Source: Octopus vulgaris
Lineage: Eukaryota
Direction: 5' to 3'
NCBI GenBank assembly: GCA_951406725.2
Contig: OX597818.1
Span: 82,398,001-82,462,000, forward strand
DNA length: 64,000 nt
Of this stretch, positions 29,323-62,684 are shown piece after piece. The first letter of the stretch is position 1. Every line of letters starts with the position of its first letter. The position numbers and the translations under genes are program-made. The notes beneath the pieces are model-generated. The model had not been told where the DNA came from. It searched no databases and was given only the letters and a program-made list of their open reading frames with translations.

Positions 29323-30601
29323 CGAGGGGCGTTCAATAAGTAATGCCCCTGACCCACTTCCCATAGCAGTAGAGCAACGAAACTTGGCACAGTTATTAGT
29401 CTTTTTCTACATAGAAACCGCCCAGAGTTATGCATTTCTCCCATCGTTTGATGCAGCTATGGAGACCGTTTTTGTAGAAGACCCCAGCTTGGTCCTCCAA
29501 CCACGACTTGACTTCAGAAATCAAGGCTGGGAGACGCTTTCCTTTCAAAAACAACTTCATGGCTGGGAAGAGGTGAAAATCAGAGGGTGCAAGGTCAAGA
29601 GAGTAGGGGGTATGGGGGAGGAGCTCATAGCCGCACGCCTGTGCTTCTGATCTGGCGGCACACGAGTTGTGGACCGGAGCGTTGTCCTGCAGGAGGAGGA
29701 TGTCTTTGCTGATCTTGCCCGGCCTCTTGATTTTGATAGCTTCTCTTAATTTCCTCAAAAGTGAAGCATAATAGGCTCCTGTAATTGTGGTACCCTTTGA
29801 CAGGAAATCTGTCATCACTATTCCGTCCTGGTCCCAGAAGACTGTGAGCATGACCTTGCCAGTAGAGGGCTGCACCCTTGCCTTCTTTGGAGGAGGTGAG
29901 TCACGGTGCTTCCACTGCATTGACTGGGCTTTGGTCTCTGGATCATAGTGATGGACCCAGGTTTCATCCCGTGTAATCAGTCTTTTGAACAATTTTGACT
30001 CATCTTCTTGGCACATCTCCAAATTCATCCTCGAGCACTCGACACGTTCTTGCTTCTGGAAAGGTTTGAGCAACCTGGGAATCCATCTGGCAGACACCTT
30101 TTGCATATGCAAATGGTCATGAATGATAGTTTCCACAGACCCGGCACTAATCTTGACCTCATGGGCTATTTAGCGAATAGTTATGCGTCGATCTTCCAAA
30201 ATGGCAGCATCAACTTGACGGACATATGCCTCATCAATGGCAGAAGGGGGCGACCAGATCTGGGAGCTGTTTCCACAGAGTTCCAACCATGTTTGAATTC
30301 ATGATGCCAGCATTGTACAAGGTCATATGATGGGGCATCATCACCATAAGTTACTTTCATTTCATCAAAAGTCTCCCGTGGTGTGCGTCCTTTCAAATAC
30401 AAAAACCGGATCACTGCTCGACACTCAACAGGCTCCATTTCACACTTGACTCAGTTCAAACACCTGTAAATCAGAAACCACAATTAGTTCAGAGCTGTAA
30501 TTTGCCAGTTAATCTATAGAGATATAAATAATTGCACATGATTTCAGCTAGATCAAACAATTGCAAGTGGGTCAGGGACATTACTTATTGAACGTCCCTC
30601 G
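29323..30601 (-). mobile_element. Full-length mariner (DD34D, irritans-like) with TA TSD
   Basis: TIRs cgaggggcgttcaataagtaatgcccctgacccactt and aagtgggtcagggacattacttattgaacgtccctcg, each flanked by TA. Confidence 0.97.
29396..30438 (-). pseudogene. mariner transposase with frameshift (ORFs 30181..30438 and 29396..30136)
   Basis: WIPRLL, TRDETWVHHYDPETK, LLQDNAPVH, YSLDLAPSDFHLF; 34 residues between the second and third catalytic Asp. Confidence 0.95.
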
Positions 30602-45473: not shown

Positions 45474-45698
45474 GTCCTTCTATTTCTCCATCTATCTATT
45501 ATACATATGTATATGCATATATATATATATATATATATGCATATATAATATAAAATAAATATAAGAGAGTGGTCACTATATGGCTCACTCTAGCACCAGT
45601 TAATCCAAAAGGTTTCAACCACAAAAATACATGTTTCCCATGAAAGTCAGTACGATTGTTAGCTCACACGGACAGGGCAAATAAAAAATAACAAAATA

Positions 45699-45794
45699 CA
45701 GATTATTTTGGGACAATTGTTTCGCTATTAATGAATTAAATGTAATTTTACTTACAATAAAATCCACTTGTAGCTCTTCAGCCAAAACTATCTG
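45699..45794 (-). ncRNA. Type I hammerhead ribozyme, array copy 1
   Basis: Reverse complement of the motif at 47479-47574. Confidence 0.9.
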
Positions 45795-46232
45795 GATGAA
45801 ATCCACTCAATCACACGCCAGATTTTACCATAACGATAAATACGCGTGTGGTTCAATTGATTACATCCGACGTTATAATTCAAATGCCCCAACTAACAGC
45901 GCGCCAAACTTTCACGGAAAACAAATACAGCATTTAGAAATAAATGCAGCATAATTATAATTAATTAATAAGGGTGAGAGAATTAGATACTAATTTAATA
46001 GTATATCTATTCTACACCAAGTGGCCTAGTGCTCCGAGAAACCTGGATTATTATAATATTTTATAATATATTATAATATTTTTACAAAATAAATATAAGA
46101 GAGTGGTCACTATATGGCTCACTCTAGCACCAGTTAATCCAAAAGGTTTCAACCACAAAAATACATGTTTCCCATGAAAGTCAGTACGATTGTTAGCTCA
46201 CACGGACAGGGCAAATAAAAAATAACAAAATA

Positions 46233-46328
46233 CAGATTATTTTGGGACAATTGTTTCGCTATTAATGAATTAAATGTAATTTTACTTACAATAAAATCCA
46301 CTTGTAGCTCTTCAGCCAAAACTATCTG
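46233..46328 (-). ncRNA. Type I hammerhead ribozyme, array copy 2
   Basis: Same sequence as copy 1, +534 bp. Confidence 0.9.
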
Positions 46329-46766
46329 GATGAAATCCACTCAATCACACGCCAGATTTTACCATAACGATAAATACGCGTGTGGTTCAATTGATTACAT
46401 CCGACGTTATAATTCAAATGCCCCAACTAACAGCGCGCCAAACTTTCACGGAAAACAAATACAGCATTTAGAAATAAATGCAGCATAATTATAATTAATT
46501 AATAAGGGTGAGAGAATTAGATACTAATTTAATAGTATATCTATTCTACACCAAGTGGCCTAGTGCTCCGAGAAACCTGGATTATTATAATATTTTATAA
46601 TATATTATAATATTTTTACAAAATAAATATAAGAGAGTGGTCACTATATGGCTCACTCTAGCACCAGTTAATCCAAAAGGTTTCAACCACAAAAATACAT
46701 GTTTCCCATGAAAGTCAGTACGATTGTTAGCTCACACGGACAGGGCAAATAAAAAATAACAAAATA

Positions 46767-46862
46767 CAGATTATTTTGGGACAATTGTTTCGCTATTAAT
46801 GAATTAAATGTAATTTTACTTACAATAAAATCCACTTGTAGCTCTTCAGCCAAAACTATCTG
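46767..46862 (-). ncRNA. Type I hammerhead ribozyme, array copy 3
   Basis: Same sequence as copy 1, +1068 bp. Confidence 0.9.
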
Positions 46863-47478
46863 GATGAAATCCACTCAATCACACGCCAGATTTTACCATA
46901 ACGATAAATACGCGTGTGGTTCAATTGATTACATCCGACGTTATAATTCAAATGCCCCAACTAACAGCGCGCCAAACTTTCACGGAAAACAAATACAGCA
47001 TTTAGAAATAAATGCAAAACAATTGTCCCAAAATAATCTGTATTTTGTTATTTTTTATTTGCCCTGTCCGTGTGAGCTAACAATCGTACTGACTTTCATG
47101 GGAAACATGTATTTTTGTGGTTGAAACCTTTTGGATTAACTGGTGCTAGAGTGAGCCATATAGTGACCACTCTCTTATATTTATTTTGTAAAAATATTAT
47201 AATATATTATAAAATATTATAATAATCCAGGTTTCTCGGAGCACTAGGCCACTTGGTGTAGAATAGATATACTATTAAATTAGTATCTAATTCTCTCACC
47301 CTTATTAATTAATTATAATTATGCTGCATTTATTTCTAAATGCTGTATTTGTTTTCCGTGAAAGTTTGGCGCGCTGTTAGTTGGGGCATTTGAATTATAA
47401 CGTCGGATGTAATCAATTGAACCACACGCGTATTTATCGTTATGGTAAAATCTGGCGTGTGATTGAGTGGATTTCATC

Positions 47479-47574
47479 CAGATAGTTTTGGCTGAAGAGC
47501 TACAAGTGGATTTTATTGTAAGTAAAATTACATTTAATTCATTAATAGCGAAACAATTGTCCCAAAATAATCTG
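47479..47574 (+). ncRNA. Type I hammerhead ribozyme, array copy 4
   Basis: cagatagttttgg-CTGAAGA-gcta..agtggatt..tgtaa gtaaaa ttaca..aattcatt..tagc-GAAAC-aatt-GTC^ccaaaataatctg. Canonical core; 13-position helix I (one mismatch, one GU); extended helix II; palindromic minimal helix III; predicted cleavage after C47561. Confidence 0.92.
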
Positions 47575-48012
47575 TATTTTGTTATTTTTTATTTGCCCTG
47601 TCCGTGTGAGCTAACAATCGTACTGACTTTCATGGGAAACATGTATTTTTGTGGTTGAAACCTTTTGGATTAACTGGTGCTAGAGTGAGCCATATAGTGA
47701 CCACTCTCTTATATTTATTTTGTAAAAATATTATAATATATTATAAAATATTATAATAATCCAGGTTTCTCGGAGCACTAGGCCACTTGGTGTAGAATAG
47801 ATATACTATTAAATTAGTATCTAATTCTCTCACCCTTATTAATTAATTATAATTATGCTGCATTTATTTCTAAATGCTGTATTTGTTTTCCGTGAAAGTT
47901 TGGCGCGCTGTTAGTTGGGGCATTTGAATTATAACGTCGGATGTAATCAATTGAACCACACGCGTATTTATCGTTATGGTAAAATCTGGCGTGTGATTGA
48001 GTGGATTTCATC

Positions 48013-48108
48013 CAGATAGTTTTGGCTGAAGAGCTACAAGTGGATTTTATTGTAAGTAAAATTACATTTAATTCATTAATAGCGAAACAATTGTCCCAAA
48101 ATAATCTG
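48013..48108 (+). ncRNA. Type I hammerhead ribozyme, array copy 5
   Basis: Same sequence as copy 4, +534 bp; predicted cleavage after C48095. Confidence 0.92.
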
Positions 48109-48387
48109 TATTTTGTTATTTTTTATTTGCCCTGTCCGTGTGAGCTAACAATCGTACTGACTTTCATGGGAAACATGTATTTTTGTGGTTGAAACCTTTT
48201 GGATTAACTGGTGCTAGAGTGAGCCATATAGTGACCACTCTCTTATATTTATTTTGTAAAAATATTATAATATATTATAAAATATTATAATAATCCAGGT
48301 TTCTCGGAGCACTAGGCCACTTGGTGTAGAATAGATATACTATTAAATTAGTATCTAATTCTCTCACCCTTATTAATTAATTATATA

Positions 48388-48449
<62 letters not shown>

Positions 48450-48450
<1 letters not shown>

Positions 48451-48746
48451 TAGCAGTATCGCCCGGCGTTGCTCGGGTTTGCAAGGGAAAAAACTATATA
48501 AACATTTTTAGAGAGTTACTTCCCTTATATAATAGCGAAAAAATGCATTAAAATGGAAAAAATGATGGTAATTTTTTTTTTAAATCGTAGACTCATCGTA
48601 GACGCGCGCTAATGCCCAGAAGGGCTCGATATGAATCCCGGCTATAAGATATCCAGTTTTGGTTAAACTGCACCGCCAAATGTGGGAGTAGTTAGGAATC
48701 TAAATCGTAGGAGACAGACACACATATTCACTTTTATATATAAAGA
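48450..48746 (-). mobile_element. Short non-autonomous Helitron (297 bp)
   Basis: Minus strand starts TCtttatatataaaag and ends with hairpin cccgagcaacgccgggc + gatactg + CTAG; inserted between A and T. Confidence 0.9.
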
Positions 48747-48786
48747 TATTGTTGTATTTCGGAATGGTCCTTTTGCCAGTTTAGCC

Positions 48787-48930
<144 letters not shown>

Positions 48931-50118: not shown

Positions 50119-50450
50119 ACAATTGCAGCGTGGAAGGTGTTTGTAAGCCAGTTAAGAAACACACAAAAGCCGTTCAATTCACTTCAACATTTAAGTTTAA
50201 TTTGTCAAAATATTTTCGTCGCTAAAATCCGCGACAATCACTGACAAAAATCCGTGCGGATTTTTGTCAGTGAACAGGTCGCGGATTTTAGCGACGAAAA
50301 TATTTTGACAAATTAAACTTAAATGTTGAAGTGAATTGAACGGCTTTTGTGTGTTTCTTAACTGGCTTACAAACACCTTCCACGCTGCAATTGTTTTCGT
50401 TTCAGCACACGATCTCAGATCAAATCACTTGCTATGCGAGTACATCTCCA
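50119..50450. mobile_element. Near-perfect 276-bp palindrome (50119-50394) plus tail, in (TA)n; Penelope-terminus-like
   Basis: Arms of ~137 bp centred on 50255/50256 differ essentially only at gacaatcac vs gacctgttcac. Confidence 0.85.
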
Positions 50451-50734: not shown

Positions 50735-52990
50735 ATGGAAGTTGAACAGAAAAAGCTCTTCAAATACTCACTGAAAAGCACTTGTGAAATGGAAGTACAA
50801 AACCATGCTGATTGGCGAAGCTGCACCAACGGAGATGCCACCTGTTACGAGTGGAAGAGTATTGCAATATCTATAACTGCATCTCCCTGCAATCCTGTAG
50901 CTGTCTCTCACACTTGGCGCGCTTCAATTCGTAGCCCAGAACACATTCTTTTTCCCGCGGAAAAGAGTTCAATCAGGATAATTTTCTTGGACTTTTCAGA
51001 CGAACAGAACCACATCTGTCCTCAGGGTGTTATGGATGACCTGGGGAAACGGCAGTCACTCCCCAGATCCACTTTCATATCCCATGATTGAGATTCATGC
51101 AGCAGGCTATGTGTCTCTTTTGTTCTCCTTGACTGCCTCTCTTCTTGTTTCATGAACTTAATTGCCACCGCTGTTTTCCACTGATGGTGATGATGTTTCT
51201 TGAGTCTTTCATACTCCAGAGCGTAAGTGAGTGTTGCATGCACCCTATCATGGCGCCACTTCATTGAGAAAGGGCAATTCTGCACCTTGAAAGGATGTGT
51301 GCCAGCATACATCTTTCAACACAAAATCTACACAGCTGGTCTTCCCTGAAACGCCATCTATGCAAGTTTGTTCGTGTTGGGAGTTTTTTTTTCATACGCC
51401 ACTCGTAGCAGAAAGAAGATGTGAAATGATTCCAGTCTCCATAGGTCTGCCTATATGACCTTCCTTTTCAGGAGGTCACATCGAGTCCAGGCACCCTGAG
51501 ATACCAGCTCCACAGCTTTTGATGTTCTTTCTTCCTTCTGGCTCCACACTTCTGTCTGGATCATGGGACTCCTCTCCCTGAAGCCCACCTTCTGCCATTG
51601 TCTGAAGTGGAGGGAATCGAGACGTTAGCAGCATCTGCTTGTAATTTCAATGATATCGCGTAGCTTCCGCAAGCCTTCAGCCTGAACGACTGTAGAGTTA
51701 GCTATCCACTTTCCACCAGACCTTGTAATACTTGCATGTCTGGTAATACATGCAAGTATTACTCCCAACTCTCCCAACACCAACAAACTTGCATAGATGG
51801 CGTTTCAGGGAAGACCAGCTGTGTAGATTTTGTGTTGAAACATGTATGCTGGCACACATCATTTCAGGGTGCAGAATTGCCCTTTCTCAAGGAAGATATG
51901 TGGCGCCATGATAGGGTGCATGCAACAAACTGATCCTGCGAATCTCTGTAATTCATTACCACATTACATTTTGCGAGTTCGAATTCCTCCACTACGGATG
52001 ACAGTTGTAGCTGTTCAGATCCTACGTAGCGGTCTAATGAAATGAAGCTTGGTGTGGACACCTAACTACCTTCAGAGGTATTTCTTTATCTTCCTCTCCA
52101 CCATTTCCACGCTGGTTATTGGAGTTTCATATGGTGCCAGTAACCAGATTAGTCCGTGTCGGTAAAGCTATGCCTTGTATTTTCATAGAAGGCCTGATAT
52201 TTCAATCCTACTCAGCTACTCCTCTGCTTGCTACTCCGTATTGGGGACATTGCTATTATTCGAGAGTGAATTCAAACCTAGCTCCAAGGCATTTCTTCTA
52301 ATTTTCTTCAACAGATGGGAAAGCCTCTCCGTCCACTTGCAGCTTAATTTTGTTTGTTATTTTACCTCTACTGACCACCAATAATACTACTACATTTTGG
52401 GGGCTTAAACTTCATTCTAGCCCATGCTGGTGGAGGCGCGTGACTTAGTGGTTAGGGTGTCAGCATCATGATCGTAAGATTGTGGTTTCGATTCCTGGAC
52501 TGGGCGACGGGTTGTGTTCTTGAGCAAAACACTTCCTTTCGCGTTGCTCCAGTCCACTCAGCTGGCAAAAATGAGTAACGCTGCCATGGACTGGCGTCCC
52601 ATCGAGCTGGGGAACACATACGCCATTGAAACCAGGAAATCGGGCCCATGAGCCTGACTAGGCTTTAAAAGGGCGCATTTTTTATTATTTCTTTTTATAT
52701 GCCATATGATCCACTGAAGCCCGCTCCCTTTCTCCATCCGCACGGGTTGTAGTTGTCACCGTGGGACCATTCAGGAAGCACCTTATCGGACGTTGAGGCA
52801 TGCGTAATTCCCTTGTTAGGTCTTGGGCTTGCTTATCAGTAGCAGGTATGACGAGAATTATGCCCCAAATGAAAGGGATCAGTGAAATTGTGCAGTCAGT
52901 TATAATTTTTTTCTCCAGATCTTGCCACCAAGTTCTAAAGTGTGCTGTTTAGATGCGTAACTGGATCTCTCCTTATTAGCAGGTAATTAT
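50735..52990 (-). mobile_element. HERO-clade non-LTR retrotransposon fragment (RT to REL endonuclease), decayed, with internal inverted duplication and SINE insertion
   Basis: WQDLEKKIITDCTISLIPF (RT), YETPITSVEMVERKIKKYL, SSVVEEFELAK, ADLWRLE..FLLRVAYE, C..C..HIISGCRIALSQGRYVWRHD, WDMKVDLG, and TLRTDVVLF..KIILIEL. Confidence 0.85.
52431..52685 (+). mobile_element. tRNA-derived SINE nested in the HERO element
   Basis: Same family as 33009-33262. Confidence 0.9.
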
Positions 52991-61452: not shown

Positions 61453-62664
61453 CTACATACGTACATACATATGTACATACATACAAACATACATACATAC
61501 ATACGTACGAGGGGCGTTCAATAAGTAATGCCCCTGACCCACTTCCCATATCAGCAGAGCAACGGAACTTGGCACAGTTATTGGTCTTTTTCTACATATT
61601 GGTCTTTTTCTCAGAGTTACGCATTTCTCCCATTTGATCCAGCTCTGGAGACCGTTTTTGTAAAAGACCCCAGCTTGGTCCTCCATCCACGACGTGACTT
61701 TAGAAATCAAGGCTGCATCATCTGGGAAATGCTTTCCTTTCAAAAACAACTTCATGGCTGGGAAGAGGTGAAAATCACAGGGTGCAAGGTCAGGAGAGTA
61801 GGGGGGGAGTTCATAGCCGCACGCCTGTGCTTCTGATCTGGCGACACGCGAGTTGTGGACCGGAGTGTTGTCCTGCAGGAGGAGGATGCCTTCGCTGATC
61901 TTGCTCCGCCTCTTGATTTTGATAGCTTCTCTTAATTTCCTCAAAAGTGAAGCATAATAGGCTCCTGTAATTGTGGTACCCTTTGCCAGGAAATCTGTCA
62001 TCACTACTCCGTCCTGGTCCCAGAAGACTGTGAGCATGACCTTGCCAGCAGAGGGCTGCACCCTTGCCTCCTTTGGAGGAGGTGAGTCACGGTGCTTCCA
62101 CTGCATTGACTGGGCTTTGGTCTCTGGATCATAGTGATGGACCCAGGTTTCATCCTGTGTAATAAGTCTTTTGAAAAAGTTTGACTCATCTTGGTACGTC
62201 TCCAAATTCATCCTCGAGCACTCGACGCGTTCTTGCTTCTGGAAAGGTGTGAGGAACCTGGGAATCCATCTGGCAGACACCTTTTGCATATGCAAATGGT
62301 CATGAATGATAGTTTCCACTGACCCGGTACTAATCTTGACCTCATGGGCTATTTGGTGAATAGTTATGCGTCGAGCTTCCAAAATGGCAGCCTCAACTTG
62401 ACGGACAGATACCTCATCAATGGCAGAAGGGGGTCGACCAGATCTGGGAGCTGTTTCCACAGAGTTCCAACCATGTTTGAATTCATGATGCCAGCGTTTT
62501 ACAAGGTCATATGATGGGGCATCATCACCATAAGTTACTTTCATTTCATCAAAAGTCTCCCATGGTGTGCGTCCTTTCAAATACAAAAACCGGATCACTG
62601 CTCGACACTCAACAGGCTCCAAAATTTCAACTAGATCAAACACCTGGAAGTGGGTCAGAGGCAT
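61453..62664 (-). CDS. 403-aa open mariner transposase ORF, probably defective (native ATG lost, DD31D spacing, frameshifted C-terminus)
   Basis: ORF track; TQDETWVHHYDPETK, LLQDNTPVH, PYSPDLAPCDFHLF. Confidence 0.7.
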   Translation of the reverse strand: MPLTHFQVFDLVEILEPVECRAVIRFLYLKGRTPWETFDEMKVTYGDDAPSYDLVKRWHHEFKHGWNSVETAPRSGRPPSAIDEVSVRQVEAAILEARRITIHQIAHEVKISTGSVETIIHDHLHMQKVSARWIPRFLTPFQKQERVECSRMNLETYQDESNFFKRLITQDETWVHHYDPETKAQSMQWKHRDSPPPKEARVQPSAGKVMLTVFWDQDGVVMTDFLAKGTTITGAYYASLLRKLREAIKIKRRSKISEGILLLQDNTPVHNSRVARSEAQACGYELPPYSPDLAPCDFHLFPAMKLFLKGKHFPDDAALISKVTSWMEDQAGVFYKNGLQSWIKWEKCVTLRKRPICRKRPITVPSSVALLIWEVGQGHYLLNAPRTYVCMYVCMYVHMYVRM

Positions 62665-62684
62665 TACTTATTGAACGTCCCTCG
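61508..62684 (-). mobile_element. mariner (same family as 29323-30601) with 5'UTR deletion, inserted in (TACA)n with TA TSD
   Basis: Both TIRs present and flanked by TA; close match to the 29.3-kb copy. Confidence 0.97.

Follow-up and report, generated by a model that had tools for sequence, protein, structure and literature searches.

In the sampled inverted copies of a tandem repeat with a predicted hammerhead in the octopus genome, the outer ends of the two divergent arms, not the junction between them, are the fixed feature. These ends lie at two sites of the repeat unit, A (positions ~284–290) and B (~153–160), with (TA)n following each. One A end and one B end were found at 73 of 75 inverted loci; A+A and B+B combinations did not occur (0 and 0), and two loci had an aberrant end. 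The two arms are probably the products of two reverse transcriptions, primed by both nicked strands of the target at two fixed internal sites of the RNA, in which case the junction would mark the points where copying stopped. The original prediction for the insertion studied here concerned its junction and made no mention of the outer ends.

An inverted array in the window

The window is the whole 64,000-nt stretch of Octopus vulgaris DNA that was analysed (contig OX597818.1, positions 82,398,001 to 82,462,000, forward strand). Sequence, inverted-repeat and period analysis placed a 534-nt repeat at 45552–48385 of the window, split into two arms, and the units of both arms are all identical in sequence. 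Position 1 of the unit is the first base 3′ of the predicted GUC cut. The features of the insertion are the following.

45532–45547, + strand: likely left copy of the target-site duplication (TSD), 16 nt, within a (TA)n tract (direct repeat with G/C)
45548–45551, + strand: four additional A/T bases separating the TSD from the B end (sequence)
45552–47016, − strand: left arm, 1,465 nt, 2.74 units, in RNA sense from unit position 298 to outer end B (160)
45565–45593, − strand: predicted hairpin directly 5′ of putative priming site B, bounds approximate (fold)
45706–45787, 46240–46321 and 46774–46855, − strand: complete hammerhead motifs of the left arm
47016–47017, no strand: inversion junction, divergent and blunt, unit 298 // unit 524
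47017–48385, + strand: right arm, 1,369 nt, 2.56 units, from unit position 524 to outer end A (290)
47028–47561, + strand: one complete 534-nt unit between successive cut sites, the predicted RNA monomer
47486–47567, with a second copy at 48020–48101, + strand: complete type I hammerhead motif of the right arm (sequence)
48328–48361, + strand: predicted hairpin directly 5′ of putative priming site A, bounds approximate (fold)
48382–48397, + strand: likely right TSD copy, whose first 4 nt (TATA) overlap the end of the element

The original prediction described the junction accurately. It falls at 47016/47017, and the predicted type I hammerhead GUC cut (after 47027) follows 11 nt downstream; the left arm stops at 47016 (unit 298), the inverted block begins at 47017 (unit 524) with AAACAATTGTC, and the two sides have zero bases in common. 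The ribozyme-sense strands of both arms do point away from the junction, and the suggested TSD holds as a 16-nt, G/C-containing direct repeat (45532–45547 / 48382–48397) that behaves like one. A hairpin of >1.3 kb had also been proposed; the inverted pair is real, but the size was a little high, the longest hairpin being 1,250 nt with a spacer of 210 nt.

The sole ORF of ≥110 aa inside the insertion spans the junction (46753–47124). Among the 84 ORFs of this size in the window, no host gene was recognised by eye, and a tblastn search with 781-aa proteins of Penelope-like elements (PLEs) gave no match in it. The sequencing runs listed include none recorded as RNA, and the dsRNA, ADAR and siRNA roles raised by the original prediction are hypothetical. 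Two minus-strand ORFs (29396–30169 and 61453–62667) are, by their look, presumably mariner-type transposases. Downstream of the right TA tract lies a separate repeat-like sequence (48450–48790) that begins with CTAGCAG and that we take to resemble Helitron-type ends. The window also holds two more inverted repeats, 117 and 125 nt long (50119–50394 and 51259–51895), 96–100% complementary and unrelated to the repeat described here.

The repeat unit and its class

Each full unit carries, with a period of 534 nt, the parts of a hammerhead motif: stem I, CUGAAGA, a long stem II, GAAA, a short stem III with an AAUU loop, and GUC. G and C account for 171 of the 534 bases. The 21-nt core has 2,148 exact matches in the 2.8-Gb genome, and the monomer has a predicted fold of −155 kcal/mol (z = −7.8), which 0 of 100 shuffles equalled in stability. 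The Rfam hammerhead models gave no match at the gathering score in the window and none at E ≤ 5 in 47300–47700, an absence that the long stem II may explain; the class to which the element is assigned below takes its definition from structural descriptors, not from Rfam.

Evidence that the ribozyme is maintained comes from eight hammerhead copies of young and older subfamilies, in which 97.9% of cells pair. Both sides are altered in four of the six pairs of stem I, and 0 of 500 shuffles reached the covariation score of this stem, although related sequences can beat shuffles. Stems II and III are nearly invariant among these copies and hence little informative. The preservation of stem I through compensatory changes suggests that cleavage matters.

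Published metazoan non-LTR retrozymes are non-coding, low-GC tandem units with a type I hammerhead that occur as many dispersed arrays and lack LTR, PBS and PPT; they have a highly self-paired predicted monomer and TSDs of >4 nt, and a PLE reverse transcriptase (RT) is proposed to copy them from a circular intermediate (PMC7229834; bioRxiv 10.64898/2026.07.22.740005). The octopus element shares with them tandem low-GC hammerhead units, a self-paired monomer, dispersed arrays and a TSD of >4 nt. Its unit of 534 nt compares with 170–400 nt (PMC7229834) and 51–972 (bioRxiv 10.64898/2026.07.22.740005) in these descriptions. By its sequence, the element fits a young tandem non-LTR retrozyme and so adds a new family to a class already described. 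Having no ORF for RT plus GIY-YIG endonuclease, the unit resembles PLE cargo rather than an autonomous PLE.

Three loci (L157, L163 and L180) belong to an older subfamily of 69–80% identity that retains the B end and the hairpin before it, a stem judged by eye, together with a hammerhead core that has compensatory changes in stem I. Polarised family variants lean toward A>G in the RNA sense (12 among 126 A, vs. 7 T>C among 176 T), and changes private to single laps of the unit are symmetric (10 vs. 11). The weak A>G lean could be RNA editing fixed by the RT, or tolerance of G-U pairs. Further type I hammerhead families with a long stem II and a palindromic stem III lie near the fetched loci (L111:126-570, L086, L090, L131, L156, L158 and L168), with inverted pairs at L090 and L111; these are likely additional retrozyme families.

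Two fixed outer ends and their pairing

We parsed 133 loci, consisting of the window and 132 others: the 39 best DNA matches, 33 core-motif loci that follow one another on contig C1, and a further 60 drawn from end-motif lists for C1, which contained nine more new loci that were left unparsed. The forward strand gave counts of 556 and 410, from which we estimate roughly that the whole family likely comprises a thousand or more insertions; the 133 parsed loci are biased to contig C1 and to young copies. Genome-wide end counts were inflated on the reverse strand and served only as lists of places. The parsed set divides into 56 loci of a single orientation, 75 with one switch and two that are complex. 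Removing aberrant ends, more than two segments and gaps of >40 nt from the 75 inverted loci leaves 63 clean ones. A set of 144 junction ends was obtained by dropping the window, L149 (a parse artefact) and L170, whose junction and flank are those of L072. These last two loci (L072 at C1:7.51 Mb, L170 at C1:205.7 Mb) have their junction and right flank in common and differ in left-arm length; we read them as one insertion duplicated along with host DNA and later altered by one unit.

The pairing of ends survives the removal of loci that had been selected as A-B neighbours, of the window and of the duplicate: 61 of 63 loci then carry one A and one B end. Every single orientation switch is divergent (75/75). 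Copies of a single orientation end at B in 31 cases and at A in 25, and several of them bear 9- to 18-nt matches to the other end on their 5′ side, the shortest of which are possibly chance given the AT-rich flanks. Both sites lie shortly 3′ of a hairpin in the predicted fold. The target shows (TA)n on both flanks in 56 of 59 loci. Direct repeats of 8–16 nt that contain G/C were found at 7 of the 59, including the window (19 informative), as compared with a mean of 1.06 and a maximum of 4 in 300 shuffles.

The two ends differ in their texture. A ends are mostly uniform (65/88), and B ends are ragged, often with short extra ATT-type repeats ahead of the TA tract (L036, L046, L051, L094 and window 45548–45551); B values of 170 are alignment run-on into that tract. 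The raggedness of B ends is possibly slippage at initiation.

Two other accounts of an inverted array are that it is an assembly artefact from chimeric fold-back reads or a pair of independent insertions in one TA tract. Repeat insertions are indeed drawn to TA tracts (L135, L225), and none of the contigs listed bridges the window junction, although that listing carries no weight either way. However, neither process yields the pairing of one A with one B end, an exclusively divergent orientation, TSD-like repeats or private variants present in both arms, and contigs from two other runs carry like divergent joints elsewhere (short sides 20–28 nt). We therefore regard both accounts as very improbable.

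Junction position and the ribozyme cut site

The original prediction had interpreted the insertion as a Penelope-type event with twin priming, which fits our data, and had further tied its breakpoint to the catalytic core. This second element of the interpretation fails, since the junctions of other copies are scattered along the unit and show no clustering near GUC: of the 144 junction ends, 9 are no more than 12 nt away from the cut, where 6.5 are expected (p = 0.20). Pooling them with the 5′ ends of single-orientation copies gives 9 of 200, against 9.0 expected. Among the 63 clean loci the count is 8 of 126 ends, with expectations of 5.7 under a uniform distribution (p = 0.21) and 6.4 under smoothed arm lengths (p = 0.30).

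A junction such as that of the window, 11 nt from the cut site, would nonetheless be accounted for by an RT that halts or switches template where the RNA is cleaved or within the catalytic core. Without filtering, 12 of 150 ends lie within 12 nt (p = 0.039), a count that takes in the window, the L149 artefact and the L072/L170 duplicate; one end (L152) is precisely at position 1. Five of the 144 ends fall at positions 523–529, just ahead of the entry to stem II (expected 1.9, p = 0.04 post hoc), perhaps because the RT pauses mildly before the folded core. Against this, 30 other overlapping 7-nt windows of the unit contain at least as many ends, with denser ones at positions 38–50 and 63–82, and the excess near the cut disappears in the cleaned and pooled sets. 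None of the 56 single-orientation 5′ ends lies within 12 nt, and arms cross the cut site 198 times, with one exact stop there. Placement of the junction by the ribozyme is thus an improbable proposition for the family. In the window itself, the right arm reads 11 nt through the cut and each arm crosses it three times, so this junction was not set by a cleaved linear end. The chance that either end of a junction falls ≤11 nt from the cut is 8.4%, and the closeness of the window junction to the cut looks like a chance position.

Relationship of the two arms

Both arms of a locus carry the same version of the repeat. At the 44 loci with overlapping arms, the arms within a locus differ by 0.23%, vs. 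a median of 2.5% to other loci, and for 36 of the 44 no closer arm exists elsewhere. Locus-private variants (n = 6) were found in every lap of both arms. Mixed laps make up 29 of 2,806 polymorphic cells, vs. 1,205 expected for random family members, and 27 haplotypes occur among 48 multi-lap loci. The longest arms reach 12.8 units. Gene conversion could have homogenised the arms.

One way to obtain two arms of one haplotype is fold-back or self-priming, in which a single cDNA would turn back to serve as its own template, its far end then being resolved by the endonuclease at the second of the fixed sites. Self-priming was proposed for the Penelopes of Adineta (PMC3846280) and endonuclease resolution for the tail of PLEs (PMC8557442). 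Fold-back accounts for the shared haplotypes; the arms are nested, and individually compatible with it, at 50 of 63 loci. The two stops of a locus are also closer than chance (14/63 within 30 nt vs. 7.4, p = 0.012), and palindromic junctions occur at a few loci (L174, L190, L149), so that fold-back or a common RNA break may account for a minority of loci. In the remaining 13 of 63 loci, however, the arms are not nested, the second containing sequence that is absent from the first, and eight of these have no overlap at all, which excludes fold-back for those 13. The stops lie >30 nt apart at 49 of 63 loci, and the longer arm can start from either site (A 39, B 24). As a general explanation, then, fold-back appears unlikely. 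We also considered a collision model, in which one RT is halted at the start of the other, and rejected it: B arms stop within 15 nt of A at only 4 of 63 loci, and A arms within the same distance of B at 2 of 63.

A closer relative of our preferred reading keeps the two priming sites but places them on a long tandem transcript left uncleaved, or on a pair of RNAs of one source array, instead of on one circle. This arrangement is compatible with all of the end, haplotype and read-through counts, and in the available part of the Poseidon study, unprocessed RNA was the one mainly used in vitro (PMC11167929). Its difficulties are that the maintenance of stem I by compensatory changes suggests a role for cleavage and that arms reach 12.8 units, whereas linear-only copying would tend to shrink arrays. 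A junction common to two loci was found, moreover, in only one pair among 75 loci (L072/L170), and there the host flank is common too. We hold this arrangement to be the less probable one, though a good deal easier to credit than fold-back.

The same pairing in autonomous Penelope-like families

Two protein-coding families of the same genome show the pairing as well. The first, found through a GIY-YIG search, has a 781-aa frame with RT and GIY-YIG domains (Pfam) and two ends ~40 nt apart. All six of its divergent pairs within 12 kb are mixed (100 short and 19 tailed ends, from one common stretch of contigs C1–C3). Short ends are ~5 times commoner than tailed ones (541 vs. 110), and the probability that all pairs are mixed is 0.0005 if ends are independent. 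This family (L136:1418-5121, L123–L139) is young and (TA)n-targeting, with a CX4CxxC finger ahead of the GIY-YIG domain; a hammerhead pattern search of it found none. Several copies have their coding region divided between two overlapping frames, of 479 and 781 aa; a frameshift or an intron could account for this.

The second family, ~6.3 kb long, has 17 mixed pairs among 17 divergent ones, from 35 loci chosen by their A-type end. Its 840-aa ORF (L232:5137-7659; G000:C4:22479800-22489700; also L203–L247) includes an asparagine-rich insert. The family is young and combines a minimal hammerhead with a 3′ region that is long and AT-rich; its ends lie 98 and 183 nt 3′ of the cut, and a first look gave 1,335 candidates. 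Pfam returned no RT or GIY-YIG match for this ORF. Its motifs are KWK at 44 (an RWK variant), DKT at 129, YRDD at 360, CTCRDKSNC at 691, YIG at ~733, CYLC at 797 and CRH at 826. PLEs of the Hydra clade are characterised by RWK, DKT, CxCx5C, a C-terminal GIY-YIG with CxxC and CxH, a hammerhead and a (TA)n target (PMC8557442), and the motifs suggest that the ORF carries the features of this clade.

The Hydra-like family and the retrozyme are alike in their (TA)n target, type I hammerhead and CAATTG stem III and, by eye, in end motifs of CT/CCT plus AT-rich sequence. They differ in that the former is autonomous, is ~6.3 kb long and has a minimal stem II. The retrozyme unit has no alignable homology to the Hydra-like pLTR (score 40 vs. 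a shuffled mean of 39), and blastn found no match between it and 40 GIY-YIG loci. The Hydra-like family is the best candidate for the mobilising protein; with no alignable homology between the two, it is an unproven helper and the partnership a candidate only.

A model of paired initiation

The copies display the hallmarks of PLE-type insertion, namely random 5′ truncation, a divergent inverted arm, a one-ended tail and a (TA)n target. We suggest that the array would be transcribed, self-cleaved to monomers and ligated into circles. A borrowed Penelope-like RT/GIY-YIG protein pair would then assemble on one RNA, one member at the hairpin before A and the other at that before B, and would nick both strands of a (TA)n tract with a stagger of ~10–16 nt. 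Each 3′ end would prime at its own site and copy round the template, for up to 12.8 laps and through the ligated cut site. Copying would stop at random, and the two cDNA ends would be joined with 0–4 nt of microhomology, the junction overlap observed at 55 of 75 loci. Single-orientation copies would be events in which one of the arms has a length of no more than a few bases, or none. Like ends would never pair because one RNA bears the two sites. As to the template, conservation of a ribozyme that the RT nevertheless copies through makes us lean modestly toward a circular monomer rather than a linear multimer, although a homogeneous source array copied as a linear multimer yields the same haplotype pattern.

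It is useful to contrast this scheme with twin priming by L1, in which two target-primed cDNAs are joined at their 3′ ends to give divergent arms within a TSD. The internal site at which the second L1 primer anneals is variable, and L1 arms overlap little, whereas both sites of the octopus element are fixed and its arms overlap and run for several laps. Parallels exist in endonuclease-containing (EN+) PLEs, which have an inverted 5′-truncated copy, a one-ended tail, (TA)n targeting and two alternative 3′ ends (PMC8557442; PMC3846280). The octopus element matches them in its (TA)n target, its divergent inverted arm, random truncation at the 5′ side and two alternative 3′ ends of which one alone is extended, but its tail is ~130 nt as compared with 30–40, it apparently encodes no protein, and its pairing is quantified and near-absolute. 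The papers on EN+ PLEs invoke self-priming or endonuclease resolution; here, non-overlapping arms oppose fold-back in at least 13 of 63 loci. The tandem and inverted structure of PLEs and their one-ended tail have been ascribed to “still undefined” steps (PMC8557442).

The biochemical counterpart is the Poseidon PLE of Anolis, which when purified cuts and extends both strands at AT-rich targets (Frangieh et al. 2024, PMC11167929). In the available part of that paper, two sites within the RNA, which correspond to genomic ends and define the tail, serve as RT starts, the start site is equal between strands, a dimer is predicted, and the ribozyme is dispensable for insertion in vitro. The Poseidon start sites are adjacent there, whereas those of the octopus element are 130 nt apart, each past its own predicted hairpin. 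That same part draws no link between the two sites and inverted copies, one site per strand or coupling within an event, and the supplementary text of PMC11167929 does not mention “inverted”, “tail”, “dimer” or “both strands”.

The one-ended tail is already in the literature; the coupling of two sites to two arms is apparently new. Fixed priming sites and paired ends are absent from the available parts of the two retrozyme papers, and the word “inverted” occurs 0 times in the main text of PMC7229834 and once in the accessible portion of bioRxiv 10.64898/2026.07.22.740005. Inverted repeats and 34-bp repeats are treated in the part of PMC2377424 available to us. No title or abstract opening that we found states the one-site-per-arm rule or a twin-priming mechanism; the 2005–2006 reviews of PLE tails lie outside this search.

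More broadly, we raise tentatively, at somewhat less than even confidence, the idea that Penelope-like retrotransposition is obligately twin-primed, with two hairpin docking sites on one RNA and an asymmetric RT-endonuclease pair that assigns one site to each target strand. If so, obligate twin priming would account, for autonomous PLEs as for retrozymes, for the TSD and the inverted arm as well as the tail, and a retrozyme circle would be copied by two RTs rolling simultaneously. The copying of retrozyme circles into the genome has so far been a hypothesis. The pairing rule ties retrozymes to the PLE machinery through the anatomy of their insertions rather than through co-occurrence, and its near-absolute observance, with one site per arm, in three families of one genome makes a precise prediction for the existing in vitro PLE system. 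Overall, the anatomy of these insertions sharpens the model of Penelope-type integration and makes it testable: the fixed A and B ends likely represent two reverse transcriptases that start together on one RNA, which would explain the long-puzzling shape of Penelope-like elements.
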